DNA from: Bradymonadia bacterium
GTDB lineage: Bacteria > Myxococcota_A > Bradymonadia > UBA7976 > UBA1532
Length of the DNA: 64,000 bases
Direction: 5' to 3'
Assembly: GCA_046290225.1 (NCBI GenBank)
Contig: JBKAGE010000008.1
Location: forward strand, 1 to 64,000
The notes beneath the pieces were generated by a model. It did no database searches, had not been told where the DNA came from, and saw only the letters and a program-made list of their open reading frames with translations. The translations under genes and the position numbers were made by a program. Shown here in pieces: positions 6,917-62,071 of this stretch. Position 1 is the stretch's first letter, and every line of letters starts with the position of its first letter.

Positions 6917-7223
6917 AGCAGGGCCTCCAATCTGGTGACATGGCTCTCCCATGGACCAGCTTTCACAACGAACAGGTGGTAGGCGAAGTGAAGTTTATTA
7001 CCCATCTTCATATGTGAGCGTTCGTGGCACTGCTGCGTCTTCTGATCATGGCGGTGATCGAACAACATCTGTGCACCCACCTGCTCGGAGCAGTGGCTCG
7101 TGTCATCGAGCCTCGACACGGTATCGGCAGCTGCGCAATCGCCGCCAAAGGTGGGGACTTAAACTTTGATAGGGCAAGGGCGGAGGGGGCAACATCTGGA
7201 CTGGCGATGTCACCAGGGCAGGA

Positions 7224-8840
7224 TCAGAGCTTCTCGAGATCAGTCTTGCGATTGGGGATCGGTGCCGGTGTGAGCACCAGCTGCTCTCGATAGCGCGACT
7301 CCAGGTCGTCCCATTCCACTGCGAAAGAGCCCCCTGTGGATTCTTGTTGTCGCTGTGCGCTGGCCAGCAGCTCGAGGCAGGCGTGGTCGATGTAGGCCAG
7401 CGAGCCGGCGTGTACGTGCACCTCGGTGCCTCGGGGCAGGGCTTCGAGGGCCTCGGCGAGGGTGGGCAGGGCCACGAAGGTCGCGGCGCCGTGCAGGTGC
7501 AGGTCGACCCGGTTGCCTGTCTGGGACTGCTTCACGTCGAGGCGGGAGAACTTGAGCAGCAACTTCGCCGCGGCGAGGGCGATGCCCACCAGCACACCCG
7601 TGAGCAGATCAGAGGCCACGATGAGGGCTACGGTGACCGCGTAGATGGCCATCTCGCCCTTGGAGAAGCGCCAGAGCTTCAGGGCCGCCTTGGGGTTCAT
7701 CAGTTTGTAGCCCGTGTAGACGAGGATCGCCCCCAGGCTGGCCCGGGGGATGGCCTCGAGTACGAAGGGCAGAGCCACAACGAGGATCAACAACCAGAGG
7801 CCGTGGGCCACGGCGGAGATGCGGGTCTGTGCGCCGGCGTCGACGTTGGCGGAGCTGCGGACGATGACCCCGGTCATGGGCAGGGCACCGAAGACGCCAC
7901 AGATGAGGTTGCCCACGCCCTGGGCAGCCAGCTCGCGATCGTAATTGGTGCGGGCCCCTTCGTGCATCTGATCCACCGCTGAGGCGCAGAGCAGTGTCTC
8001 GGCGCTGGCGATCACTGCGATGCCCACCACCGTGAGGAAGAAGTCGTGATCGAGCAGCATCACGAAGTCGGCGGGGTTGGGGAAGTTCAGGCTCTCGACG
8101 AAGTTGGCGGGGATCTCGACGTAGTTGATGCTCTCGAGCTGGAAGAAGTGCGCCGCGAGGCTTGCCGCCACAACAGCGATGAGGGCCCCAGGCAGGGCCT
8201 TGAGGGCCTTCGGGCGGAACGTGTTCCACAGCACGAGGGTGACCAGCGTGAGCATGCCGATGGCGGCGGCGATGTGATGACTTGACCCCTCGATGGGGAT
8301 CACGCCCTTCTGAATGGCTTCGGGGATCGAGAGCAGGTTGTCGATCCCGGTCTTGCGCGGGGCGTCATCCACCATGAAGTGGAACTGACTGGCGAAGATG
8401 AGTACCCCGATGCCGGCGAGCATGCCTTGAATCACCGCTGGTGATGTGGCCCGGAACCATCGCCCCAACTTGAGCCAGCCAGCGATGAACTGCATGGCCC
8501 CTGCAGAGAACACGGCCACCCCGAGCATGGGGACGCCGTGGGTGGTGACGAACTCGAGGACCAGCACCGCGAGGCCCGCAGCAGGGCCGCTCACCTGGAG
8601 AGGGGAGCCGGTGATGAAGCCCACCACCAGACCACCGACGATGCCTGTGATCAGGCCCAGAGATTCCGGGACCCCCGAGGCGCCGGCAATGCCCATGCAC
8701 AGAGGAAGGGCCACCAGGAACACCACCACCGAGGCCATGAGCTCTCGGGCAGGGGCGAGCTTGAAACCTGGCTGATGGAACTCGAAGAACATTTTCTTCA
8801 TGGAAGAAGACGCTGGTTTGTCAGGAAGGGGTTGGTTCAT
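7224..8840 (-). CDS. SulP/SLC26 inorganic anion transporter
   Basis: VVFLVALPLCMGIA, QVSGPAAGL, QGVGN, PMTGVIVRSSAN; many TM helices; reduced STAS-like C-terminus; start chosen by GAGGA RBS. Confidence 0.93.
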   Translation of the reverse strand: MNQPLPDKPASSSMKKMFFEFHQPGFKLAPARELMASVVVFLVALPLCMGIAGASGVPESLGLITGIVGGLVVGFITGSPLQVSGPAAGLAVLVLEFVTTHGVPMLGVAVFSAGAMQFIAGWLKLGRWFRATSPAVIQGMLAGIGVLIFASQFHFMVDDAPRKTGIDNLLSIPEAIQKGVIPIEGSSHHIAAAIGMLTLVTLVLWNTFRPKALKALPGALIAVVAASLAAHFFQLESINYVEIPANFVESLNFPNPADFVMLLDHDFFLTVVGIAVIASAETLLCASAVDQMHEGARTNYDRELAAQGVGNLICGVFGALPMTGVIVRSSANVDAGAQTRISAVAHGLWLLILVVALPFVLEAIPRASLGAILVYTGYKLMNPKAALKLWRFSKGEMAIYAVTVALIVASDLLTGVLVGIALAAAKLLLKFSRLDVKQSQTGNRVDLHLHGAATFVALPTLAEALEALPRGTEVHVHAGSLAYIDHACLELLASAQRQQESTGGSFAVEWDDLESRYREQLVLTPAPIPNRKTDLEKL

Positions 8841-32143: not shown

Positions 32144-33904
32144 ATGTCTGAGCGCCGGGCCAGCATCTGGCCGCTCCCTGGCGGCGTGTTGCACTATGTC
32201 GACACCCTCACGGCCCTCACCGAGGCTGTGGCGAAGCCCCCAGGCGGTGGCCCTCTCACCCGTGAAGAGTTCTACGACCTGCTCGAGGCCGCCTATGGCG
32301 TCACCGGCCTCAAAATGCGGGAGACCTACCTCAAGGTGCTCGAGGTCCTCGGCTTTGCCACCGTGGGCGGAGATGCCATCGAGATCACCCCTGCAGGCAC
32401 CGAATGGCTCGACACGCATGCGCCCGAATTCGTCTTCGAGGCCCTGCACCGCAACTTCGTGGGGGTGCTTGAGACCCTCGTGCTCATGGAGACCCTGGGG
32501 CTGGCCCAGGGGGTCGAGCTGCATCATCTGCTCAGCGCCCTGTGCGACATCGAGTGGCGCAGCACCAAACAGGGCGATTTTCGCCGGAACTGGCTCGTAG
32601 GCCTCGGCTATGCAGAGCGTCACCCAGAAGGCGATCGCATCACCGCGGCGGGGGTGGCGCTGCTCGACACTTGGCAGGGCGAGGCCGACGAGATCAGAGC
32701 GCGAGTGTCCCAGCTCGATCTGCCCGTGGAGTATCCCGATGCCCATGAGGGGCTCGACGGCAGATGGGCAGAGGAGGCCTCTGCCCCCGGCGCGTTGAGC
32801 ATCGACACTCCAGAGGTCACCACCTCGGGGCCCGCAACCACAGAAGGGGTGACAGAAGAGACAGCAGAGCTCGAGCCCGCAGATGCTGACGAGGATGCCG
32901 AAGGCGAGATGGCAGATGATGATCTGCCCTGGGATCGACCTGTGCTCCCTGTGGACGCGGTGATGACCCGCTTGGGCCCGCTGGCATTGTCCCAGTCGGT
33001 GGTGGCGCAGATTTGTGCGGCCATCTCCGCGGGGCAACACGTGCTCCTCGTGGGCCCGCCGGGCACGGGCAAGACCGAGCTTGCGGAGCGGGTGGCTCAG
33101 GCCGCAGCCGTCGAGGGGTGGTGTCGCGGAGGCCTCACCGCCACCGCCTCTGCTGACTGGACCACTTACGAGACCGTCGGGGGCTACGCCCTGGGCCGAG
33201 ATCAGGCCCTCAGCTTTCGCCCGGGGGTGTTTTTGCAGGCCGTCGACGAGTCGAAGTGGTTGATCATCGACGAGTTCAACCGCGCCGATCTCGATCGGGC
33301 CTTTGGTGAGCTGATGACTGTGCTCTCGGGCAAAGGAGTACGCACCCCCTTCGTCGACGACGCCGGGCGCCCTGTCACTGTGGGCCCGGGTCGAACGCAT
33401 CGTTATCCCGTGCCCTGGACGTTCCGGGTGCTGGCCACCATGAACACATGGGACAAGACTTCGCTGTTCAGGCTGTCTCACGCGCTGCAGCGGCGCTTTG
33501 CCACGGTGCACGTCGGACCCCCTGGGGGTTCGATCTACGCCGAGGTGCTCAAGCAGGCGGCTCTGGCCCCTGATCGGGTGCCCGCGCTCCCCGAAGACGT
33601 CACCCGTCGACTCGCGGCTCTCTTCAGTGAGGGGGCTCTGTTGTCGATCCGGCCTGTGGGGCCGGCGATCCCCTTGGACATGATCAAATACATGCGCCAC
33701 AGAGGGATCGGCGGCGACTCTGGTGGAGATGCCCTCGCCGAGGCCTTCGAGATGTACCTGCTGCCTCAGCTCGAGGGCCTCGATCGAGGCCCCGCCGATC
33801 GAGCCTGGTCCGTGCTGGTCCGCGCCCTCGAAGGGGTGGCGTCTCCAGGCAGAGTGGCCGACTTGAGGGCCCGCTTCGATGAGCTCTTCCCCCACCTCCG
33901 CTGA
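32144..33904 (+). CDS. McrB-like AAA+ NTPase with N-terminal tandem winged-helix-like domains
   Basis: Walker A GPPGTGKT, Walker B LIIDEFNRAD, McrB signature TMNTWD, RRF; two N-terminal L-x2-LG-[FY]...IT-x-AG repeats. Confidence 0.88.
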   Translation: MSERRASIWPLPGGVLHYVDTLTALTEAVAKPPGGGPLTREEFYDLLEAAYGVTGLKMRETYLKVLEVLGFATVGGDAIEITPAGTEWLDTHAPEFVFEALHRNFVGVLETLVLMETLGLAQGVELHHLLSALCDIEWRSTKQGDFRRNWLVGLGYAERHPEGDRITAAGVALLDTWQGEADEIRARVSQLDLPVEYPDAHEGLDGRWAEEASAPGALSIDTPEVTTSGPATTEGVTEETAELEPADADEDAEGEMADDDLPWDRPVLPVDAVMTRLGPLALSQSVVAQICAAISAGQHVLLVGPPGTGKTELAERVAQAAAVEGWCRGGLTATASADWTTYETVGGYALGRDQALSFRPGVFLQAVDESKWLIIDEFNRADLDRAFGELMTVLSGKGVRTPFVDDAGRPVTVGPGRTHRYPVPWTFRVLATMNTWDKTSLFRLSHALQRRFATVHVGPPGGSIYAEVLKQAALAPDRVPALPEDVTRRLAALFSEGALLSIRPVGPAIPLDMIKYMRHRGIGGDSGGDALAEAFEMYLLPQLEGLDRGPADRAWSVLVRALEGVASPGRVADLRARFDELFPHLR

Positions 33905-35171
33905 GGCGGCCGCCTTCGAGCCTGCCTGGGAGACGTTCCTCAGGTCCGAGGCCATGGGGTGGCTGTTGCCCTCTGCGTGCAGGCAGGCCATGAGCCCGCA
34001 CCTCGCTGCACGGTTTCTCCGGCGCCTCACGGGCCGCCCTGATCAGCTCGAGCTGCTGCACGAGAGCAGCCTCATCTCGGCGCACTTGAACGAGATCATC
34101 GACTTCGTACGGCGAGCGCTCCCTGCCTGGGTGCGGATCATGCCGTCGGTGAGCGAGCGTCTGCGAGAGGTGCACGAGGGTGTGGTGCCGGGGCCCCTCG
34201 ACATACCGGCGACTCTGGCGCTCCGGCGTCGCGGTCAGCACACGCGATTCGTGACGCGGCGACCCATACGGCGTTTCGACCGACCCGAGAACATTCTGGT
34301 GGCGGCGGTGGCCCGCCGGCTGCTGGCCATTCTGGTCCGGTTGAGGTCAGAGGGGGTCATCCGTCAAAAGAACTGGGGGGCCGAGGCCCTGGCCTGTGAG
34401 GGAGTTCTGCGCCACGTGTTCCGCCAGAGCACCTTGCGCCAGGTACCCGAAGTGCCCATCACCGCGGTCCATCTGCAAGGCGCCATCGAGGCCCCGATGC
34501 CCATTTATGAGCAGGCGAGGGCGCTCTGGGCGCCGCTCTCCGCCATCACCGCCCCCACTCGACCTGATGCCGTGGCCCGGCTGGTGGCTGAAGGGGCCCT
34601 GGCCCCCCTCGAGCCTCACCGACGCTTCGAATATGCGGTGTGTGTCGCTCTCATCGCAGGCCTGTGGCGCACCCTCGACGAGGCCGAGCCTCACCGGTGG
34701 CGCCTCGAGCGGTCTCTGGTCATCGAGGGCCGCGACGAGATCGCCGCCCTGGTTCGCCCCGCAGATGGCGCCCGCCTGCGGGTGTACTACGACACCACCG
34801 CGCAGCTGCCTGCGGGTCCGCGAGATCTCGGCGTGCAGCGCTACCTCGGCGTCAGCGGGCGGTTGAGGCCCGACATCACGGTCTGGTGCGAGATCCCGGG
34901 TCAGAAGCCCCGGGCGGTGGTGGTGGAGGTGAAGCTCTCGGTGGATCGCGAATACCTCGCCTCGGGTTTTCAAGAGGCCCTGGCCTACGTAAATGAGTAC
35001 CGGCCAGTGCTGTGGGGATGGCCCAAGGCGATCCTGGTGACCTCGGCGGCGATCCCCGGCGCCCCTGCTCGTGATGACGACGCCGTGGCCATTGATTGGG
35101 ATCGCTGGCCCTCTGCGGATTTGCTCCATGGCATCACCGAAGGTGTGTCGCACGACACATCAGAGGGTTGA
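33879..35171 (+). CDS. McrC-like / DUF2357-type PD-(D/E)XK nuclease
   Basis: Overlaps the McrB-like stop; G-x-LDIPAT, FDRPENILV, RFEY, LRPDITV...VVEVK nuclease motif, AYV. Confidence 0.8.
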   Translation: MSSSPTSAEAAAFEPAWETFLRSEAMGWLLPSACRQAMSPHLAARFLRRLTGRPDQLELLHESSLISAHLNEIIDFVRRALPAWVRIMPSVSERLREVHEGVVPGPLDIPATLALRRRGQHTRFVTRRPIRRFDRPENILVAAVARRLLAILVRLRSEGVIRQKNWGAEALACEGVLRHVFRQSTLRQVPEVPITAVHLQGAIEAPMPIYEQARALWAPLSAITAPTRPDAVARLVAEGALAPLEPHRRFEYAVCVALIAGLWRTLDEAEPHRWRLERSLVIEGRDEIAALVRPADGARLRVYYDTTAQLPAGPRDLGVQRYLGVSGRLRPDITVWCEIPGQKPRAVVVEVKLSVDREYLASGFQEALAYVNEYRPVLWGWPKAILVTSAAIPGAPARDDDAVAIDWDRWPSADLLHGITEGVSHDTSEG

Positions 35172-35366
35172 TCCCATCTTCGTCGCTCCGCTCAACTGAA
35201 TCTGGTCTCCATGCCGATGAAGAGATTCTGAGGCAAATGAGTCTCGACGGTGACCGTCAAGGTGTTCTCAGCATCTTGATCTCAGCTCGCCTCGCGCACC
35301 ACGGCATCACGCCACGGGTCCCTCACGATGAGTGGCTCCGATGCCATGGATCACAAGGAGTCTGTG

Positions 35367-36569
35367 ATGAAGCCATTGCCATTAGTCGAAGAGCAGATCT
35401 GGCTCCTGAGTGCCCTCGGTGAGCTGATCGAGCGCTGTGGGCCCGAGTCGCTGACGCGATCACCCATTCCCACACCATCGTCACGTTACTTACCTGATCC
35501 CATCGAATCAGATCTGATCAGTGTACACACACTGTGTCGCCGTCTCTTGCTCTACGCAGGTCTACGCAATTTCGAGGTCACACTCGCAGATCGACACCAC
35601 GCCACCCAGGGCCCTGTGGCCGGTGGCCGTGGTGGGCTCTGGCTCGCCGAGATCGAAGACACCTCGATCACCTTCGGCTTCGAGCCCCGTCGCATCGAAG
35701 ACATCGACGATTTGCTCGCTCAGATGGCCCGAGCGGTGGCCCAGGCCTGGCGCGCGCATCATGATCTCGTCGACGACGACGCATACGAAGAAGCCCGCCT
35801 CGTAGATGTCACCGCGATGTACCTCGGCTTCGGCGTCTTCATGCTCAACGGTGCGCATCGGGCGAGCACGCCAAAGGCGGCCCACGAGATGATCGGCGGC
35901 TGGTGGTCTTCGGCCCCCACGGGATATCTGAGCCCCCAGAGCGCGGCCTGGCTGCTCACGGCTCAGCTGCGCATCAGAGAAGAAGACGCCCGCACGGTGG
36001 CGGCCATCGAGCGCACTCTGGGCCCAATTCAGCAAGTGTGCTTCCGCGCGAGCCGAGCAGAGCACGATGGCCGGGGGAGCAATTTGCGCCGAGACCTGGG
36101 CATCTACGCCCCGGAGACCTGGGACCCAGCGCCGCCGCTGAGCATGTTCACGGCACCCCTGAAGCCTGCTCACGTGGGCGACTCGGCCCCCGAATTGAGC
36201 CCCGACGAGCCTCATACGGTGTTCCGCATCATCCAGACGGGCATGCACCGCAACCTGTTGATTCAGATGGCGGTGATCAACATCGTGGCGGCGATCATGG
36301 TGGTCAAAGGAGGCCGCCTCGGGGTGATGGCGGCGATGATGACTCTGGGTGTCACTGCGGTGATGGCGCTTCGGGGTCGCCGCCGGGAGCACTGCTCGCA
36401 TTGCAAGCACGCTTTGAATCACAGCCACGTCGAGTGTCCGGGCTGCGGAGGCATGATCAGAGGCCGCATCGAAGACCGCGGGCGCGGTCGTCGCATTGAT
36501 CAACTGCTCTCCGAGAAAGCGCCGGGCGACGAGAAGGGTGGTCGGGGGCGCGGTGAGCGAGTGCCGTGA
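35367..36569 (+). CDS. Hypothetical membrane protein with zincin-like core (HExxH absent), two TMs and zinc ribbon
   Basis: AAGGAG RBS; EEARLVDVTAMYLGFG, GYLS; two hydrophobic helices; CSHC-x9-CPGCG. Confidence 0.75.
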   Translation: MKPLPLVEEQIWLLSALGELIERCGPESLTRSPIPTPSSRYLPDPIESDLISVHTLCRRLLLYAGLRNFEVTLADRHHATQGPVAGGRGGLWLAEIEDTSITFGFEPRRIEDIDDLLAQMARAVAQAWRAHHDLVDDDAYEEARLVDVTAMYLGFGVFMLNGAHRASTPKAAHEMIGGWWSSAPTGYLSPQSAAWLLTAQLRIREEDARTVAAIERTLGPIQQVCFRASRAEHDGRGSNLRRDLGIYAPETWDPAPPLSMFTAPLKPAHVGDSAPELSPDEPHTVFRIIQTGMHRNLLIQMAVINIVAAIMVVKGGRLGVMAAMMTLGVTAVMALRGRRREHCSHCKHALNHSHVECPGCGGMIRGRIEDRGRGRRIDQLLSEKAPGDEKGGRGRGERVP

Positions 36570-42020: not shown

Positions 42021-42357
42021 CTCCAAGATATGCAGCCTCAGGCTGCACTGTCAGGTCAAACAGTGGCCAGCCCTACGGGTGCCTTTCCGCTCCCTGCGGC
42101 CGGCTAGCCGGCTCCACTCGCTCCAAGACATGCAGCCTCAGGCTGCACTGTCAGGTCAAACAGTGGCCAGCCCTACGGGTGCCTTTCCGCTCCCTGCGGC
42201 CGGCTACGCCGGCCTCCACTCGCTCCAAGACATGCAGCCTCAGGCTGCACTGTCAGTACCCAACAGTGGCCAGCCCTACGGGTGCCTTTCCGCTCCCTGC
42301 GGCCGGCTACGCCGGCCTCCACTCGCTCCAAGACATGCAGCCTCAGGCTGCACTGTC
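42021..42357. repeat. Intergenic tandem repeat, 100-103-bp unit, about 3.3 copies, palindrome-rich
   Basis: Units start at 42021, 42121, 42223 and 42326 (CTCCAAGA[TC]ATGCAGCCTCAGGCTGCACTGTC...) and are nearly identical. Confidence 0.95.
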
Positions 42358-51480: not shown

Positions 51481-51677
51481 TTGTTGAGCAGTGAGCATCT
51501 GCGCGGACCGCTGCCGGACCTTCGCCGGCTCGCCGCTCTCGAAAAAAAGAGAATCTCGAACCCCTCAGAATTGAAGGTGGATCCAAAAACCTTGGCGGTT
51601 AAAATGCGGCCCGGTAGATCTCGACGACACCCCCGCACGTATCAGGAGCCCGAGAGACGATGTTCGGTCTGATCCTC

Positions 51678-52340
51678 ATGGCCTTCGGCAAACGCCGGGC
51701 CCAACGCCCCAAGGGGCAGACAGATGAGGATCTGATGGAGCGGTTCAGGGATCAAGGAGACACCGCCGCCTTCGAGGAGCTGCTTCGGCGCCACGAGCGG
51801 CCAGTGTTCAACTTCATCCGCAGGATGGTGCGCGACGACGAGCTGGCGAACGACCTGCTACAGGAGACCTTTCTCCGCGTGGTGAAGAGCGCCAAGGTCT
51901 ACAGTCGAAAGGCCAAATTTACGACCTGGCTGTACACCATCGCCCGCAACCAGAGCATCGACTCTCTGAGAAAAGCGAAACACCGCCGCACCGTGAGCCT
52001 CGATGCCCCGGTGAAAGGCGGAGAAGAGGGAGACCGCACGCTCATGGAGCGCATCCCCGGGAAGAGTGAAGACGCACATACGCGTCTCGATGCCCGAGAG
52101 ATGACCGAGCGCATCCAGACGGCGGTCAACCAGCTCAGTGACGAGCAACGGGAGGTGTTCATGATGCGCCAGTTCCAGGGTCTACCCTTCAAGGAGATCG
52201 CCTCGGTGGTGGGCGTCTCCGAGAACACCATCAAGAGTCGCATGCGGTACGCGCTGGAGAACCTGCGCCTGGCCCTCGCCGACTACGCAGAATCGATGCC
52301 GGGGCAGGTGAACCCCATCCCGGCCCGCAGTCGGGTGTGA
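51678..52340 (+). CDS. ECF RNA polymerase sigma factor
   Basis: TDEDLM, DLLQETF, FTTWLYTIARN (region 2); QREVF, EIASVVGVSENTIKSRMRYA (region 4). Confidence 0.95.
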   Translation: MAFGKRRAQRPKGQTDEDLMERFRDQGDTAAFEELLRRHERPVFNFIRRMVRDDELANDLLQETFLRVVKSAKVYSRKAKFTTWLYTIARNQSIDSLRKAKHRRTVSLDAPVKGGEEGDRTLMERIPGKSEDAHTRLDAREMTERIQTAVNQLSDEQREVFMMRQFQGLPFKEIASVVGVSENTIKSRMRYALENLRLALADYAESMPGQVNPIPARSRV

Positions 52341-52343
52341 GCC

Positions 52344-54632
52344 GTGTCCAGCAAGACGCCATCTTCAGATCCCAAGCTCGACCAGCACCTCGTAGAGCTG
52401 CTGTTCGAAGACGAGCTGCCGCCGGAGAAAGCCACCGCGCTCCACACGGCGCTCGCCTCAGATCCCGAGGCGCAGGCGCGCTTTGAGGCCTGGCAGAACG
52501 TACTCCGGCTCACCGCCGAGCTCCCCGAGGCGGATCCTGATCCTCAGGTGCACTACGAGATTTTGCGGGCGGCCCGTACGGCCGCTGCAGTAAAAACCGA
52601 GAAGAAGGGCTTCTGGGCCTGGCTCGAAGGCTTCATGGCCTCACCGGCTCTGGCCACGGCGGGCTTGCTCGTCGTCGCCGCCGGCTCGGCCTTCTTCGTG
52701 AGCCGCATGGGTGATCAAGCCCCTGAGTCGGGCAGCGCCGTAGAGGTGGGTTATCGCGAAGAAGCCCCCGTTCAGAGCCCCCCTGCTGCGAAGGCGGTGA
52801 GTGGCGAGCAGCTGAAGAGCGAGAAGACAGGCAAGAAGGCGAAGATCAAGGCGCCAGAGGCGGAGAGGCCGGTCGCCTACGAGTGGGATGTCGATGGCGA
52901 GCAGGCGGACAATGAAGGTGCCTTCGCCCTGAACGACTCACCTGCGGAGCCGCTCGAGGCCAAGAAGAAGGGTGCTCTCGACCAGGCCAGGCTCGAGCCC
53001 GGCAGTGAAGATCCCAAGGCGGATGGCAAGCCCTTGGAGCTGGCGCTCAAGAAGGATGCGCTGGGCGGCCTGCCTGGTCAGGCGACCACCGCACCCGTAC
53101 CCGACGTGGAGGCTGTGTTGCCCAGCGGGGGCGACGCCAACGCGCCGAGCAATGGGCTCATCGCCGACACCCTCACGGAGCAGAGGCCGCAAAGCGAGAC
53201 TGCAGGAGACGGCATCGTCGAAGACGGCGCTGGGATGGGCAACCCCATGGGGAACGTCGCTGGGAGCGGCGCCCTGGGACGCAAAGGCCTCTCCAGTCTG
53301 GGCTCCAAGGGCAAGTCGAAGAATGCCAGGGGCCCTCGTGCCTCTCGTGATGATGCGGATGGCCGCTTCAAGCAAGAGGCACGCGCGCCCGAGGACAGCG
53401 CTGAGCGCCGCCTCACGGGCAAGGGCCGGGTTGAGCGGGACAAAGAGGCTCTCGAGGATGGTGAGACCAGGATCAACCTTGGCGATCTGACCGTGGAGTC
53501 CAATGCCGGTGGCCGGAAGACCCCCAAGGGCAAGTCGGCGACCCGCACATCTACAGCACAGCGAAAGGCGCCCAGGAAAGAGCAGACCAAGCGTCGAAAG
53601 AACAAGCGCCCAAGCAAGAAGCTGACGATTGGCGACTTCAGAGGCGATGCCGAGGGTGAAGCCGCCGTTGACGGTCTGGCCACTGATGAAACCAGCAACC
53701 GAGGCGAGTTCGCCGACGTGCCACCGAGCGTACCCCCTGCAGATGTGGGTGGAATGGCTGTCGAGGGTACAGGTCGTGGCGGTGGTGGCAGCGCTGATGC
53801 GAATCAGGACCGGGCTGCGCCCGAGCCGTTCCCCGCACAGGCCGAGGAGGACATCGCCACGAACGCCGCGCCAGCGAAGCCCCAGCGCACTCCGCCGAGG
53901 GAGGCTCAGGCTGCCGAGCGTCGACGCAATGACATGGCTCAAGAAGATGCCTTCGACACTGATGATCTGGTGCAGGGCGCTGACGTCGCCAATGCAGAGC
54001 CAGAGCTGCCAGATCCTGTGGCCGAGCCCATGCCGGAGCCTGCGCCAGAGCCTGTGCCGGAGCCCGTCGCGGTGGAGGCACCGCCTGCGACCGCTGCTGT
54101 TGCAGAGAAGGCGCCTGCGCCTACACAGGCGGCCGATCCGCCTCCGCCCCCCAAGGTGCAGAAGCCTCGCACCCGTCGCAGCAATGCCGCCTCGGGTTAT
54201 GGCGATGTGATCACGGGTGTCGAGGAGGCCCAGAAGGTCGCCGAGGCCGAAGAGACCGCCGCGCCCCCTGCCCGGACAGATCGTCTCGCCGCAGCCCGTA
54301 ACTACCGGGCTGAGGGCAAGCACCCGCTCGCCGTGCAGGCGTTCAACGAGTACATCTCGGCGAACCGTGGCACGGGGGTCTCCCTCGGGGCGGTCTACCT
54401 CGAGATCGGTCAGAGCTATGAGGCCATGGGCGACTTCGACCGGGCCCTGCAGATGTACCGCCTCGCCCGCAGCCAGGGTGGTGCGGTCCGCGGGAAGGCT
54501 CTGAAGCTGATGAAGCGCATCGAGTCACGCCGCGCAGGCCCTCAGGGCACATCAAAGAGCCAGCCCGTGGCCGCACCCAGCGCAGACGAGATCAACCTCG
54601 ACGCCGCCGAGCCCGCCAGCCCCAAAGAGTGA
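52344..54632 (+). CDS. Putative anti-sigma factor: N-terminal ASD-like helix, single TM, long disordered region, C-terminal TPR
   Basis: 3 bp after the sigma stop; LLFEDELPPE...H; one hydrophobic helix; low-complexity middle; TPR-like end. Confidence 0.75.
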   Translation: MSSKTPSSDPKLDQHLVELLFEDELPPEKATALHTALASDPEAQARFEAWQNVLRLTAELPEADPDPQVHYEILRAARTAAAVKTEKKGFWAWLEGFMASPALATAGLLVVAAGSAFFVSRMGDQAPESGSAVEVGYREEAPVQSPPAAKAVSGEQLKSEKTGKKAKIKAPEAERPVAYEWDVDGEQADNEGAFALNDSPAEPLEAKKKGALDQARLEPGSEDPKADGKPLELALKKDALGGLPGQATTAPVPDVEAVLPSGGDANAPSNGLIADTLTEQRPQSETAGDGIVEDGAGMGNPMGNVAGSGALGRKGLSSLGSKGKSKNARGPRASRDDADGRFKQEARAPEDSAERRLTGKGRVERDKEALEDGETRINLGDLTVESNAGGRKTPKGKSATRTSTAQRKAPRKEQTKRRKNKRPSKKLTIGDFRGDAEGEAAVDGLATDETSNRGEFADVPPSVPPADVGGMAVEGTGRGGGGSADANQDRAAPEPFPAQAEEDIATNAAPAKPQRTPPREAQAAERRRNDMAQEDAFDTDDLVQGADVANAEPELPDPVAEPMPEPAPEPVPEPVAVEAPPATAAVAEKAPAPTQAADPPPPPKVQKPRTRRSNAASGYGDVITGVEEAQKVAEAEETAAPPARTDRLAAARNYRAEGKHPLAVQAFNEYISANRGTGVSLGAVYLEIGQSYEAMGDFDRALQMYRLARSQGGAVRGKALKLMKRIESRRAGPQGTSKSQPVAAPSADEINLDAAEPASPKE

Positions 54633-57553: not shown

Positions 57554-57699
57554 GGATGGCACAACGTTCATGGCGGGCATTGTATGCCCGAAAACTTTCT
57601 CGCGCTTTTTTTGCCATTGCCCCAAGGCATGGTGTCACACGTTGCAGAATTGGATGAAACACTGACTGGCTGATGCCAACCCATTTGGAGAACACAGAG

Positions 57700-58287
57700 A
57701 TGATGCTTGATACCAAAAACCTGCTCGTGGCCCTGGTTGCCGCTTTCTCCCTCTCCACCTTCGGCTGCAACGTCGAGGCCGACATCTCCGGCGAAGGCGC
57801 CGTCGACGCCGCCATCGAGGAGGGCGCCGAAGGCGAAGCCCCCGAGGAGGGCTGGGAGGAAATGGAGGGGGCAGACGGCGCTGACGCCGAAGCCCCCGAG
57901 GATGATGAAGATGCTGAGCCTGATCCTGAGGTGGCCCCTGAAGGTGAGGGGGACGACGAGGATGAGGACGACGAGGACGAGGATGAGGACGGCGAAGAGG
58001 GTGATGAGGAGGAGGACGACGATGAGGACGACGACGACGAGGATGACGATGACGACGCCGATGGCGACGTAGACGAGGGCGAAGACGACGAGGAAGACGA
58101 CGACGAGGATGAGGACGGCGAGGATGAGGACGGCGACGACGACGATGACGACGCCGAGGATGACGACGAAGACGGCGAGGAGGATGAGGACGACGACGAG
58201 GATGATGACGAAGAGGGCGAAGACGACGATGATGACGGCGACGAGGAAGATGGTGACGAGGAGGCCGAGCCCCAGGCTGGCGCCTGA
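57700..58287 (+). CDS. Extremely acidic (Asp/Glu-rich) lipoprotein
   Basis: GGAG RBS; signal peptide with lipobox TFGC; the rest is dominated by D/E runs with mixed codons. Confidence 0.85.
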   Translation: MMLDTKNLLVALVAAFSLSTFGCNVEADISGEGAVDAAIEEGAEGEAPEEGWEEMEGADGADAEAPEDDEDAEPDPEVAPEGEGDDEDEDDEDEDEDGEEGDEEEDDDEDDDDEDDDDDADGDVDEGEDDEEDDDEDEDGEDEDGDDDDDDAEDDDEDGEEDEDDDEDDDEEGEDDDDDGDEEDGDEEAEPQAGA

Positions 58288-58327: not shown

Positions 58328-58840
58328 ATGCTCTTTGCCAGCCTGCTCAGGCAGCGATCTGCGGCCCTCGACATCGACCAGCTTTACCGGCGTCACGCCG
58401 GGCTGGTGGTGCGTCGGGCCCGCAGGTTTTTCCCTGACGAGGCCGAAGAGGTGGCCCACGAGGTCTTTTTGAGGGTGATCGAGAAAGCCCACACGTTCCG
58501 GGGCGAAGCATCGCCGACGACGTGGCTGTATCAGCTGACCACCCGACACTGTCTCAATCGACTTCGGTCCAGCCGCCGCCGCTCGGCGGCTCTGGCCCTC
58601 TATCGCGAAGACCCCTGGGGTGCCCCCGTGGGCAAGGATCCCGAGGTGCAGCTGTTCCTCGAGCAGGCCTGGGCCACGCTCGATCCAGAGCTGGCCACCC
58701 TGGGGGTGTATTACTTCGTCGATGATCTCACCCACCAACAGATCGCTGACATGACGGGGGTCTCCCGTCGGACTGTGGGCAACCGGATCGATGATCTGCG
58801 GGCCCATATCCAGAGGATCGCTGGAGGGAAGCACGTATGA
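58328..58840 (+). CDS. ECF RNA polymerase sigma factor (caspase-operon associated)
   Basis: LYRRH, AEEVAHEVF, FRGEASPTTWLYQLTTRHCLNRLR, QQIADMTGVSRRTV. Confidence 0.92.
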   Translation: MLFASLLRQRSAALDIDQLYRRHAGLVVRRARRFFPDEAEEVAHEVFLRVIEKAHTFRGEASPTTWLYQLTTRHCLNRLRSSRRRSAALALYREDPWGAPVGKDPEVQLFLEQAWATLDPELATLGVYYFVDDLTHQQIADMTGVSRRTVGNRIDDLRAHIQRIAGGKHV

Positions 58841-59595
58841 ACACTGAACTGAGCGCACGGCTGCTGCGCCGTGATGGGCGGTGCAGTGATCTGGCCCTCG
58901 AGCTGTGGGTGGCCGGGGAGCTGTCGACCGAGGAGCGGTTGGCCCTTGAGGCCCACTTCGAACAACACCCCGACGATCTCGCCCGGGCGGAGGCGATTCA
59001 AAGACATCAGGATCGAGTGACCTTGTCGCCCCCGGAGGCCAAGGTGCTGCGGTTCCCGTTCTGGGTGACGGGCACCCTCGCCGCTGCGCTGGCCGCGGCG
59101 CTCACGCTCATCGTCATCCGTGGGCCAGCAAACACGGTCACCACACCCACCGTGGACGATGGGATCCGCATCAAGGCCGGCGCCCTCGACTTCGAGGTCT
59201 TCGCCCACGATGGGGAGAGCAGTCGCCCGGTGACCGATGGCGGTGCGGTGAAGGCCGGTGAGCGCATCGGGTTTCGACTGAAGGCTCGACACGAGGGCTA
59301 TGTCCTCGTGGCCGGGGTCGACGAGGCCGGCGCACCCTACCCGTGCTGGCCTGCAGGTGACGCCCCCGAGGGGGCTCGCTGGACCGAAAAAGAGCCTGTG
59401 AAGCTTGATCAGGCCATGCGCCTCGATAATACCCCTGGCTCAGAGCGCTTCGTGGCGGTCTTTTGCCCTCAGCCGGTGAAGTTCACCGAGGTGAGTACGG
59501 CTCTGGTGAAAGCCCGAGCCGATCAATGGAAGGGCGATGTGCCCTTGTCCGAAGGGTGTGTCTCTCGAGTGGTCCGTTTGGAGAAGCAAAAATGA
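58837..59595 (+). CDS. Putative anti-sigma factor with TM and DUF4384-like periplasmic domain
   Basis: ATGA overlap; SDLALE...GEL...EAH zf-HC2-like N-terminus; TM; GERIGF, GYVLVAGVD, LDNTPGSERFVAVFCPQP. Confidence 0.82.
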   Translation: MNTELSARLLRRDGRCSDLALELWVAGELSTEERLALEAHFEQHPDDLARAEAIQRHQDRVTLSPPEAKVLRFPFWVTGTLAAALAAALTLIVIRGPANTVTTPTVDDGIRIKAGALDFEVFAHDGESSRPVTDGGAVKAGERIGFRLKARHEGYVLVAGVDEAGAPYPCWPAGDAPEGARWTEKEPVKLDQAMRLDNTPGSERFVAVFCPQPVKFTEVSTALVKARADQWKGDVPLSEGCVSRVVRLEKQK

Positions 59596-61187
59596 GCGCC
59601 CGTGCGTCACAGTCGCGCCTGCTCCCCATGATCTCACTGTGGATCATCGCGCTGTTGACGACTTCTTTGTGGAGCCTCGATGCCGCCGAGGCGGGCGGCC
59701 AGGTGCGGTACGCCGTGGTGGTGGGGGCCGACGAAGGCCTCGCCGACGAGGTTTCGCTGCGGTTTGCTGAGCGTGACGCCGCCCGCATCGCCGATGTGCT
59801 CACGCGTTTTGGTCAGGTCCCCGAAGAGAACCTGATCCTGCTCAAGGGCCGGAGCGCCGACGACGTCACTCGAGTGCTCGGAGAGCTCGGCAAGCGCCTC
59901 GCAGCCGACGAGGCGGCCGATCGAGAGAGCCTGCTCTTCTTCTTCTACAGCGGCCACGCCGACGCCAACGAGCTGCACCTGTACGGCTCGCGGCTGCCTC
60001 TGAAAGAACTCAAATCTCTCGTCGACGACAGCCAGGCCAAGCTGAGGGTCATGGTGGTCGATGCGTGCCGAAGTGGCGCCCTCACGCGGCTCAAAGGCGC
60101 CACCCCCGCGGAGCCCTTCGCCATCGACGCCGAAGATCGTCTCGCCAGCGAGGGCATGGCCATCATCACCAGCAGCGCCCCCGGTGAAGACGCTCAGGAG
60201 TCCGATCAGATCAAGGGCGGCATCTTCACTCATCACTTCATCGGTGGGTTGCTCGGCGCCGCAGACGCCTCCTCTGATCAGCGGGTGACCCTCAACGAGG
60301 CCTACCGCTACGCGTATGAGCAGACGCTGCGCAGCACCAGCAGAGCGCGCTTCGTGCAGCACCCGACCTACAGCTTCAGGATGAGGGGGCGGGAAGATCT
60401 CGTGCTCACCCGCCTCAAGGAGACCCGAGGTTTGGGTCGGATGGCGCTGCAGGTCGATGGCCGTTACCTGCTGTTGCCCCAGGACGACGATGGTCGGGTG
60501 GTGGAGCTGAGCACCGAGGGGCGCACCCTGGTGCTGCTCGAGCCGGGCCAGTGGCTGGTGCGCCGACGCACTGACAAGACCGTCTACGAGGCCAGGCAGC
60601 AGGTGAGCCCTGGCGAGACCACTGAGGTGATGGCCGCGGCCATGTCGCCGGTGCCTTTTGGCCAGACCGTGCGCCGAGGCGACGCCTTGAGCCGGCAGTC
60701 CGCCTGGGTGCTCACCACGGGCTTCGAGGCCGCCGGCTCGTACCAAACTCAGATCGGCCCCACCTTCGGCCCCACCCTCGGGCTGCGCGTCGATCTGGCC
60801 CCGGTGAGCCTGGAAGCCCGTGTGCGGTGGGGCCGGACCTCGTCGAGCAACACCGACGTTGATCTGACCCAGGACACCCTCGGCTTCGATCTCGGGGCCC
60901 TCAAGCTCTACGACGTGGCGCCTCCGGTGGCCCTGGGCTTCGGGGTGCGCCTCGGTGTCGACGCCGTCAATCAACGGTTCGAAACCACCGGCAGCGGCCC
61001 GGCAAGGACCGCCTATGCCGGGCGACTGAGCCCGGTCTTGCGTGCTGAATGGAACCTCGCGGCCTGGCTCACCCTGGGCCTCGAAGCAGGCGCCGACATG
61101 CGGTGGGTGCAGCTCGAAGGCGAGCTCGACGCGAGCTTTAACGCCGTCCCCGTCGGGGGCCTCACCCTCGGAGGTTACCTGCCATGA
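59592..61187 (+). CDS. Secreted caspase-family (C14) peptidase with C-terminal outer-membrane beta-barrel-like domain
   Basis: ATGA overlap; signal peptide; LRFAERDA, FYSGHAD (His), VDACRSG (Cys), AQES...FTH, Q-H-P; C-terminal amphipathic strands. Confidence 0.9.
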   Translation: MSARASQSRLLPMISLWIIALLTTSLWSLDAAEAGGQVRYAVVVGADEGLADEVSLRFAERDAARIADVLTRFGQVPEENLILLKGRSADDVTRVLGELGKRLAADEAADRESLLFFFYSGHADANELHLYGSRLPLKELKSLVDDSQAKLRVMVVDACRSGALTRLKGATPAEPFAIDAEDRLASEGMAIITSSAPGEDAQESDQIKGGIFTHHFIGGLLGAADASSDQRVTLNEAYRYAYEQTLRSTSRARFVQHPTYSFRMRGREDLVLTRLKETRGLGRMALQVDGRYLLLPQDDDGRVVELSTEGRTLVLLEPGQWLVRRRTDKTVYEARQQVSPGETTEVMAAAMSPVPFGQTVRRGDALSRQSAWVLTTGFEAAGSYQTQIGPTFGPTLGLRVDLAPVSLEARVRWGRTSSSNTDVDLTQDTLGFDLGALKLYDVAPPVALGFGVRLGVDAVNQRFETTGSGPARTAYAGRLSPVLRAEWNLAAWLTLGLEAGADMRWVQLEGELDASFNAVPVGGLTLGGYLP

Positions 61188-62071
61188 AATCGATCGCGAT
61201 CCTGACCGCGGGGCTGGCCCTCGTTGGGGCCCTGGTGGCCTGTGGCGACGCCCTCGTCGAAGGCACCTATCGCGGAGAGGCCCTCTTCATCGCCGAGGGT
61301 CGTGTGGAGGTGTTGCTCGACACCGAGGCCTTGGAGCACTGCTACGAGGCCGAGGGGCAATGCGAGCAGCAGGCCACCACGGAAGACGAAGAAGACGTGT
61401 GCGAGGCGGCGTTGCGAGAGTGCATCACCGGCGCCACCGACACGGAGAGACCCTGGGAGCGGACGCCAGACCGGCTACGCCTGGCCCTCTTCTGGACCCG
61501 TGATGGTCTCAGCAGTGGCATCGGCGGCGCCGGCCTTGTAGAGCAGGGTGGGCAGACCATCGGCCGGTTCCCCGGGCTCTTCGATCTGCGCATCTACCGA
61601 CCCCCGAGCCCTGATGTGTTGCGCTCGGCGAGTGATGGTGGGCAATACGCCATCGCCGTGGTGGCGTTGTACCTCGACGACGACCGCGACGAGCTCTGGA
61701 ACGCCACCCGAGACCGTCTGGTGGGCGGTGCGCGAAGCCAGACGGTGATCTACACCCCCGAGGGCTTCAATGACGAGCGCATCGGCGCCTTTGGCCCTGG
61801 CTGGCATCGACTGAGCTTCGAACTGGACTGCGAAGCGCAGATGCTCTCCATTGGTGATCCGGAGCCTGGCCCCATGCGGCTGGGGCTCACGGAGCGGTTG
61901 CCGGTGCTGCAGCAGGTGCTCATCGACTTCGACTGTGACGGCAGCTATGAAGACACCTGTGAAGATCCCGAGGTGCAGGCGGAGTGTGCCGCCGGCTCGA
62001 TGGAGACCATCTGCCTGATCTGCGCTGATGAAGAGGAAGACGACGATGAGGAGGAAGACGACGACGATTGA
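61184..62071 (+). CDS. Hypothetical lipoprotein with Cys pairs and acidic tail
   Basis: ATGA overlap with the caspase stop; GGAGG RBS; lipobox LVAC; ends DEEEDDDEEEDDDD. Confidence 0.85.
   Translation: MKSIAILTAGLALVGALVACGDALVEGTYRGEALFIAEGRVEVLLDTEALEHCYEAEGQCEQQATTEDEEDVCEAALRECITGATDTERPWERTPDRLRLALFWTRDGLSSGIGGAGLVEQGGQTIGRFPGLFDLRIYRPPSPDVLRSASDGGQYAIAVVALYLDDDRDELWNATRDRLVGGARSQTVIYTPEGFNDERIGAFGPGWHRLSFELDCEAQMLSIGDPEPGPMRLGLTERLPVLQQVLIDFDCDGSYEDTCEDPEVQAECAAGSMETICLICADEEEDDDEEEDDDD

Follow-up and report, generated by a model that had tools for sequence, protein, structure and literature searches.

A cassette of four genes has been analyzed in a 64,000-nucleotide stretch of DNA from a Bradymonadia bacterium (assembly GCA_046290225.1, contig JBKAGE010000008.1, positions 1 to 64,000), referred to below as the window. 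The genes, located at positions 58,328 to 62,071, code for a sigma factor of the extracytoplasmic function (ECF) type, a candidate anti-sigma factor with a DUF4384-like ectodomain, an exported caspase-fold protease that ends in a predicted outer-membrane beta-barrel, and a lipoprotein. The cassette is real, widespread and functionally uncharacterized. The comparison of its homologs has revealed a motif made of a basic residue followed by Gly that is shared by the anti-sigma linker and two sites of the caspase, which is the new element of this work. The cassette probably operates as a regulated-proteolysis switch across the envelope, in which the caspase would activate itself, leave its barrel and act as site-1 protease on the anti-sigma factor.

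Basic-Gly motif shared by the anti-sigma factor and the caspase

The linker between the transmembrane helix and the ectodomain of the anti-sigma factor is variable in the family except for the motif hydrophobic-R-x-[KR]-G, in which K/R was found in 68/68 homologs, G in 61/68 and R in 57/68. The motif lies at a median of 14 residues beyond the transmembrane helix and at the edge of the folded ectodomain (structure alignments begin at residues 112-115), which is the position at which site-1 cuts fall. In 140 further anti-sigma factors, found with a motif-containing profile and positioned with a motif-free one, [KR][GSA] was present within 11 residues before the domain in 138, and the full R-x-[KR]-[GSA] in 105, versus 2 in an adjacent control window.

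The caspase carries two such sites, T-R166-x-[KR]168-G169, nine residues past the catalytic Cys, and R361-[KR]362-G363, just ahead of the barrel, and in both the R, K/R and G positions were each conserved in 117/117 homologs. The first site belongs to a loop (residues 161-200) modelled with low confidence (predicted local distance difference test, pLDDT, about 50-57). Among 40 hand-picked, mostly divergent caspase loci, the post-catalytic site was present in 40 and the pre-barrel [KR]G in 39, with 85/480 in control windows, although 15 of these 40 caspases carry another kind of outer-membrane part, one with LA_2272-type repeats; the motif is thus preserved when the outer-membrane domain is exchanged.

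A motif test on the sigma-linked, transmembrane-bearing anti-sigma factors of 60 regions was passed by 36 of the 40 that are linked to a caspase. Of the three without a caspase, two lack the motif, one of them preceding open reading frames (ORFs) for a TPR-CHAT protease, and the third is at a contig edge. When Arg occupies caspase position 168 (6 cases in three lineages), the anti-sigma factor also has Arg in 6/6, versus 11/95 otherwise, a count in which three labels were set by eye. An earlier note on this DNA had proposed that the caspase cleaves the anti-sigma factor or is held inactive by it; the shared motif favours the first part of that statement over the second. A 758-amino-acid protein found elsewhere (P0138) has two zinc-domain-like starts, one transmembrane segment and four tandem ectodomains, and the basic-Gly motif is absent after its transmembrane segment.

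Fold, catalytic residues and topology of the caspase

In Pfam the protease matched Peptidase_C14 (PF00656) with an E value of 3.9e-11 (43.5 bits versus a cut-off of 21.4) and, below cut-off, OMP_b-brl (E 1.5e-4). The AlphaFold2 model, obtained from 117 of the 120 listed homologs (pLDDT 88.5; predicted template modelling score 0.83), consists of an N-terminal hydrophobic helix, the caspase domain (35-275), an all-beta middle domain (about 282-346) and eight strands (371-529). The leaders of 70 homologs have a hydrophobic core in 69, AxA in 61 and a lipobox in 2. The signal peptide, the small beta-rich middle domain and the C-terminal strands previously noted were thus recovered by the leader analysis and the model.

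The four residues H122, C159, D62 and D157 were each invariant in 117/117 homologs, and this intact His-Cys dyad with both acidic S1 residues supports the proteolytic model. D62 aligns with the Asp of the metacaspase sequence LRGCxND, and in metacaspases an Asp pair, whose second member is two residues before the catalytic Cys, binds Arg/Lys substrates according to the available text of PMC6426788. By its sequence, the S1 pocket is of the Arg/Lys type made by two Asp, and the enzyme is of the metacaspase/orthocaspase class. The closest fold neighbours of the caspase domain were pro-Sf-caspase-1 (Z 19.0) and AtMC4 (Z 18.4), followed by GPI transamidase (16.7), legumain (16.4) and asparaginyl ligase (15.9).

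These lower neighbours, together with a weak Pfam match to Peptidase_C13 and the identical P1-Gly junction on three segments, would also suit a transpeptidase that swaps segments at Lys/Arg-Gly with the new N-terminal Gly as nucleophile, so that pieces of anti-sigma factor, barrel or caspase would be covalently joined across the envelope. Such an activity is very improbable, given that the Z values are below those of caspases and metacaspases (18-19) and that the sequence matches of the caspase were metacaspases only (7/7). We know of no ligation product of such an enzyme.

In the model, the C-terminal strands form the barrel that had been suspected, with OmpA as best Foldseek match (E 2.9e-8), OmpX also among the matches, and Z values of 17-18 to three barrels (NspA, OmpA and a porin of the Dot/Icm system). 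Barrels of the OmpA type keep their N-terminus in the periplasm and lack a pore for export; therefore, from the model and the established topology of OmpA, the caspase domain should face the periplasm and not the cell surface. Type Va autotransporters export their passenger with a 12-stranded translocator barrel, and an autotransporter was rejected because the model has eight strands and matches OmpA, NspA and OmpX. A surface-receptor reading was likewise rejected on strand number. Hence, in the earlier picture of the caspase as an outer-membrane-anchored sensor of an external cue, the anchoring is retained and the role of external receptor is not, and sensing falls more likely to a swappable outer-membrane domain or to the lipoprotein. 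A link to ActD of Myxococcus xanthus as a caspase was dropped after no supporting paper was found.

Pairing of the genes

The host genome contains four caspase paralogs, all of them beside sigma and anti-sigma genes, with a lipoprotein gene at two. In the best 80 of 173 related loci, taken from species-representative genomes mostly titled Myxococcota, the ectodomain was encoded directly 5' of the caspase in 78 and the partner lipoprotein directly 3' in 58, and the sigma gene was present in 66 (11 of the 14 loci without it stop at a contig edge). When ectodomain and caspase were searched separately in a sample of 151 genomes of the phylum, 69 genomes were positive for the ectodomain (up to 8 copies per genome), 66 for the caspase and 59 for the pair, in agreement with the earlier suggestion that similar gene trios are common in this lineage. 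Among the matches listed, a caspase was found at most 600 bases downstream of 103/108 strong ectodomain matches, and an ectodomain upstream of 106/117 strong caspase matches; a further 7 and 40 matches fall outside these counts, three split-gene pieces were left out, and related genomes are not independent. Weak matches pair less often (14/40 ectodomains, 11/32 caspases). The reciprocal pairing of the strong matches bears out the co-conservation of the genes.

A subfamily with LA_2272-type repeats before the caspase barrel was found at L142, L145, L146, L148-L152, L155-L157, L159, L160, L162, L163 and G000:C79:152716-156223, in which the adjacent lipoprotein is mostly absent and a promoter-like site of its own is present.

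Sigma factor and anti-sigma factor

The sigma protein (170 amino acids) matched PF04542 (region 2) and PF08281 (region 4_2) above the Pfam cut-offs and TIGR02937 with 72.9 bits (cut-off 42.9); it is an ECF factor by its small size and by carrying regions 2 and 4 only. The available part of one supplementary file of the ECF reclassification (Casas-Pastor 2021, PMC7826278) holds no caspase-related entry.

In the anti-sigma candidate (252 amino acids), which has no CHAT domain in Pfam, zf-HC2 (E 0.0026) and DUF4384 (PF14326; E 0.0041, 17.6 bits versus a cut-off of 27) were matched below their cut-offs. At E<=0.01, zf-HC2 was found in 28 and DUF4384 in 34 of 67 homologs (best 8e-10), and the predicted structure of the ectodomain, of about 140 residues with two conserved Cys, resembles a DUF4384 cluster (TM-score 0.77). 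The description as DUF4384-like is therefore backed by family and structure matches, with this copy remaining under the Pfam cut-off. Hydropathy gave the single transmembrane segment described before, with the DUF4384-like domain beyond the membrane. The sequence HxxxCxxC is kept in 62/68 homologs, and the cytoplasmic zinc domain would hold the sigma factor, as judged from the family.

A profile search with the anti-sigma factor retrieved 5165 clusters at E<=1e-10, other DUF4384 proteins included, and word-index searches just 3 and 13 proteins. The predicted complex of caspase residues 35-366 with the anti-sigma ectodomain obtained a score of 0.01. Two RseP genes (TIGR00054) were found above cut-off in the genome.

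Proposed mechanism

In the resting state, the sigma factor would be bound by the cytoplasmic zinc domain of the single-pass anti-sigma factor, and the exported caspase would hang in the periplasm from its own eight-stranded barrel. A cue, for which calcium and surface contact are candidates, would reach the outer part of the barrel or the partner lipoprotein, and the caspase would cut its own post-catalytic loop after K168, becoming active, and ahead of the barrel after R362, becoming free. The freed protease would travel to the inner membrane and cut the anti-sigma linker after K113, with loss of the DUF4384-like ectodomain; RseP would then cleave the anti-sigma factor within the membrane, and the freed sigma factor would use TTGCC-N16-GTGTC promoters to transcribe the operon that encodes it and a small number of genes for surface lipoproteins. 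The anatomy, the conservation, the motifs, the promoter-like site and the RseP genes are observations, whereas all the cuts and their sequence in time, as well as the signal and the regulon, are inferred. Sequential cleavage is the simplest reading of a single enzyme specificity matched by three sites, and release is plausible because the linker is short: a site about 5 nm from the inner membrane would scarcely be within range of an enzyme of two domains that stays tethered.

A wider proposal, possible but held only tentatively, is that of a separate class of trans-envelope signalling, with a caspase zymogen serving as the receptor in the outer membrane. The two Lys/Arg-Gly self-cuts would be triggered by an exchangeable module for sensing (a plain barrel with lipoprotein, or a barrel with LA_2272-type surface repeats), and the protease would cross the periplasm as a messenger and cut the anti-sigma factor at the same motif. 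Occurring in thousands of divergent copies, this system might then be the stand-alone source of the CRISPR-linked caspase/anti-sigma/sigma modules with DUF4384.

Several observations weigh against the cleavage mechanism. At the loci L078 and L080, sigma and anti-sigma genes are missing, yet the lipoprotein and a caspase bearing both motifs are present, and the no-caspase control for the linker motif comprises 2-3 cases only. Four caspase-linked anti-sigma factors failed the automatic test: the motif of L122 is just outside the search interval, in L133 and L147 the basic residue is not accompanied by Gly, and L167 has no basic residue. The K/R covariation was not significant once kinship was considered (median p 0.5 in a sign test on 3 independent pairs, and likewise p 0.5 for the second site). 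In the window itself, the anti-sigma factor has Ala instead of the family Gly after K113 and a degenerate zinc motif, H40-xxx-H44-xx-D47, with H and D replacing two Cys. The anti-sigma motif abuts the first ectodomain strand and therefore could be structural and not a cut site. Finally, the spacing of the pre-barrel motif is different (V-R-K-G versus R-x-K-G) and it was modelled by AlphaFold2 as a confident helix. L078 and L080 also retain the upstream Cys-rich lipoprotein.

An ordered pre-barrel motif would suit a mechanism of binding instead of cutting, in which the loops with the basic-Gly motif act as pseudo-substrates or for docking, the linker or ectodomain fills the active site, and the signal is a change in binding, another protease, or none, destroying the anti-sigma factor. 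Fusions of DUF4384 to protease domains are frequent, which would be expected of a partner domain, and a conserved residue that fits S1 would be equally expected of an inhibitor loop. We consider this unlikely, in view of the invariance of the catalytic His and Cys (117/117) and of the small residue after the basic one, which is a requirement of a cut site; the linker also seems short for reaching across the periplasm to a tethered enzyme.

Promoter-like site and lipoproteins

The sequence TTGCC-N16-GTGTC was found de novo, with leave-one-out scores of at least 9 in 18/43 regions versus 1.6% of shuffles and 0/43 reverse complements. The site ahead of the window operon has the top score in the genome; the bare pattern is not rare (3 in the window versus 0.85 expected). 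Of the next three genome sites, one lies before the gene of a small lipoprotein with CxxCH and two before those of very large repeat lipoproteins rich in Asp and Cys; a further site is found ahead of a fasciclin-like lipoprotein next to the C6 paralog. These domain labels were assigned by eye and are provisional. The simple pattern was not enriched genome-wide at spacer 16 (16 sites versus 6-14 at other spacers), and in an automatic test a lipobox gene followed 3/16 sites at spacer 16 versus 3/79, with a background of 114/3000. The sigma factor may read TTGCC-N16-GTGTC; because the simple pattern is not enriched in the genome, calcium-binding surface lipoproteins as its targets are only a lead. 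A promoter-like site at G000:C41:18478 (- strand) precedes what seems to be a defective copy of the gene for the large lipoprotein at C41:30024.

A search of 99 regions gave the promoter-like motif of another subfamily, GGTGACA-N16-GTGTT, at 15 sites, mostly 35-70 bases before the sigma gene, a placement that fits self-induction; it was not found at the window locus.

The conserved site before the operon, by which the operon is probably self-induced, would agree with the caspase being an output of the system: the sigma regulon would supply a protease together with lipoproteins for the maturation or turnover of proteins at the surface, a general envelope protease would cut the anti-sigma factor, and the retention of caspase and lipoprotein in L078 and L080 would be understandable. 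This is quite improbable, as it leaves unexplained the presence of the caspase's own motif in the anti-sigma factor, the loss of that motif where the C14 gene is missing, and the near one-to-one pairing in paralogous loci.

The partner lipoprotein is a candidate sensor or regulator of the caspase. Its Cys20 is conserved in 53/54 homologs (98%), and its DxDxDG-type loops, which we take to be calcium-binding, in 42/54 and 32/54. Its predicted fold is confident (pLDDT 84.7); it has no Pfam match, no Pfam family is common to 51 members, and its Atlas matches are unnamed Myxococcota clusters only. Foldseek gave no match at E<=0.001, the best Z value (7.0) concerning a helical hairpin only, from which a new fold is not implied. 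The apparent 'fusion' of caspase and lipoprotein seen in L033 seems to be due to a frameshift, and it was left out. At L132, L136-L144, L147, L158 and L161, the fourth position is occupied by a different lipoprotein family with a start like GC-x-x-x-x-N-x-x-F-x-E-D.

The lipoprotein encoded upstream of the sigma gene contains 119 Asp or Glu among 195 residues and is the probable product of the first gene of the operon and a probable output of the sigma factor. A co-directional lipoprotein gene was found directly upstream in 21/48 loci versus 137/694 of all called genes; these lipoproteins are mostly Asp- or Cys-rich and unrelated from locus to locus.

Gene layout and other features of the window

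The four + strand ORFs were confirmed to be joined by ATGA overlaps at 58837, 59592 and 61184, and the codons of the caspase His (59955) and Cys (60066) were found at these positions. The chain of four genes described earlier stands; the transcription unit probably starts further 5', with the acidic lipoprotein as a fifth gene and the promoter-like site.

Features of the cassette and its upstream region
Feature	Position	Strand	Basis
ECF-type promoter-like site TTGCC-N16-GTGTC	57611..57636	+	de novo motif search upstream of related operons
Asp/Glu-rich lipoprotein gene, Cys23, alternative start 57673	57700..58287	+	
ECF sigma factor (regions 2 and 4)	58328..58840	+	Pfam, TIGR02937
Candidate anti-sigma factor (zinc-binding anti-sigma-like domain at the N-terminus, single transmembrane segment, flexible linker, DUF4384-like ectodomain)	58837..59595	+	
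Anti-sigma transmembrane helix, residues 76-94	59062..59118	+	hydropathy 2.11; family median 2.12
Motif in the linker of the anti-sigma factor, R111-I-K113-A114 (R-x-[KR]-G in the family), where a site-1 cut is predicted to follow K113	59167..59178	+	
Exported caspase-fold protease (C14, metacaspase/orthocaspase type; middle beta domain; C-terminal 8-stranded barrel)	59592..61187	+	
Leader resembling a signal peptide, with its hydrophobic core at 10-28 and A-E-A in positions 32-34	59592..59693	+	
Caspase domain: H122 (59955), C159 (60066), acidic pocket D62 (59775) and D157 (60060)	59694..60416	+	
Post-catalytic loop motif R166-L-K168-G169, predicted autoactivation site	60087..60098	+	
Pre-barrel motif V360-R361-[KR]362-G363, predicted release site	60669..60680	+	
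Eight-stranded outer-membrane beta-barrel, residues 371-529	60702..61178	+	AlphaFold2 model
Cys-rich lipoprotein, Cys20 at 61241, one or two DxDxDG-type loops	61184..62071	+	

The absence of CRISPR or SAVED genes from the window, noted before, was confirmed: Cas, SAVED and CHAT families had no match in a Pfam scan of 48 of the 49 window proteins (one ORF of 111 amino acids was left out), and no CRISPR-like array was found among the direct repeats. Elsewhere in the window, a second, unrelated ECF sigma factor (PRK12513-like, above cut-off) is encoded with a 762-amino-acid low-complexity anti-sigma-like protein with terminal TPRs (51660-54632), lysyl-oxidase and NIDO matches occur in one protein (4592-6667), and an intergenic repeat of about 100 bases is present in three tandem copies, two of them identical across 96 bases (42059-42357). 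An AAA_5 ATPase gene followed by two ORFs without Pfam match (32144-36566) might, we presume, be a McrBC-like or MoxR-like module.

Comparison with known systems

Four sigma-70/metacaspase operons of M. xanthus DK1622 (MXAN_4949-4951, 6681-6683, 7214-7216 and 7454-7456, ranges partly deduced from consecutive accession numbers) are described in the available text of Asplund-Samuelsson et al. 2012 (PMC3501461). Their order is ECF sigma factor, hypothetical protein (annotated with a transmembrane segment in two), metacaspase and, in two, lipoprotein; four of the five M. xanthus caspases share it, and such a sigma/metacaspase order is also reported there for Anaeromyxobacter, Haliangium, Sorangium, Ralstonia and Fibrobacter (PMC3501461). 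The window cassette has the same order, a likeness of gene order alone. As far as its available text goes, the 2012 account tends towards a cell-death role, and an anti-sigma factor, a barrel, a topology, a motif, a promoter and a mechanism are absent from it (PMC3501461). The earlier statement that no characterization is known therefore holds for function, no functional study having been found in the open literature (subscription journals are mostly outside this coverage) and the M. xanthus locus tags having only passing mentions; it does not hold for the gene order, in print since 2012.

A cell-death or anti-phage module, either as proposed in 2012 for myxobacterial metacaspases or by analogy with Craspase and DdvA, is extremely improbable. 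Autolysis is suggested in the available text of PMC3501461, and caspase/anti-sigma/sigma trios are known in CRISPR systems; on the other side, Cas, SAVED and CHAT families are absent from the scanned window proteins, the neighbours and candidate targets are surface lipoproteins (the neighbours in related loci were read by eye, without a defence-library scan), and the multiple ectodomain copies per genome fit parallel signalling. The role of most bacterial caspase homologs is an open question whose usual answer is 'cell death', and several of the caspases in each myxobacterial genome belong to this cassette. If the cleavage mechanism is true, these caspases would be dedicated site-1 proteases of envelope signalling, with the released protease as messenger between the membranes. 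With three sites predicted, the catalytic residues identified and a promoter consensus available, this idea is testable by point mutants and one reporter, and a genetically tractable host is on hand if the M. xanthus operons prove homologous.

The closest mechanistic analogue is DdvS/DdvA, which also comprises an ECF sigma factor, a zinc-binding single-pass anti-sigma factor and a periplasmic caspase-fold domain, and for which a juxtamembrane-linker cut followed by RseP is proposed in the available text of PMC11506125, truncated DdvA being cleaved by RseP. Unlike the window cassette, with its separate C14 enzyme on a barrel, DdvA includes a TPR-CHAT domain in the same protein and governs an island of CBASS and CRISPR genes, and the DdvA/DdvS type was rejected since the window anti-sigma factor has no CHAT domain and the window has no CRISPR array or Cas/SAVED/CHAT family. 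At L128:3017-7305, sigma and DUF4384-like anti-sigma genes are followed by TPR and CHAT ORFs instead of a C14 caspase, a possible link to DdvA/Csx30 systems.

In type III-B SAVED-CHAT/PCaspase systems, a caspase-fold protease cuts a sigma-binding protein in a linker. In type III-E Craspase (Csx29/Csx30/RpoE), a caspase-fold protease similarly cuts the linker of a sigma-binding protein, and one group of Csx30 C-terminal domains is DUF4384, which is frequently fused to proteases, according to the available text of 10.1101/2022.08.17.504292. Both types are cytoplasmic, triggered by RNA or second messenger and CRISPR-linked, whereas the window caspase is exported and stand-alone. MaOC1 and the metacaspases share the His/Cys dyad, the acidic S1 pair and, beyond the catalytic Cys, a basic residue after which the enzyme is predicted to cut itself (Arg219 in the autoactivation of MaOC1), as given in the available texts of PMC7475262 and PMC6426788, but they have no barrel anchor or known sigma/anti-sigma partner.

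As in FecA/FecR/FecI, an outer-membrane protein, an anti-sigma factor and an ECF sigma factor are encoded together; here the outer-membrane part is an eight-stranded barrel fused to a protease, and family profile scans of the four cassette proteins gave no match to a TonB-dependent receptor or FecR domain. The resemblance to cell-surface signalling seen earlier thus applies to the joint gene set and not to these domains. In the regulated intramembrane proteolysis of the RseA/DegS/RseP type, the site-1 enzyme is an inner-membrane serine or metalloprotease. The window cassette has the same single-pass anti-sigma factor with a bulky ectodomain, and RseP is in the genome; the candidate site-1 enzyme is instead a dedicated cysteine protease tethered to the outer membrane. 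The cassette is not a member of the DdvA, Craspase, autotransporter or TonB-type signalling systems, and most likely works by regulated proteolysis of the anti-sigma factor, for which the site-1 enzyme would be of a new kind.

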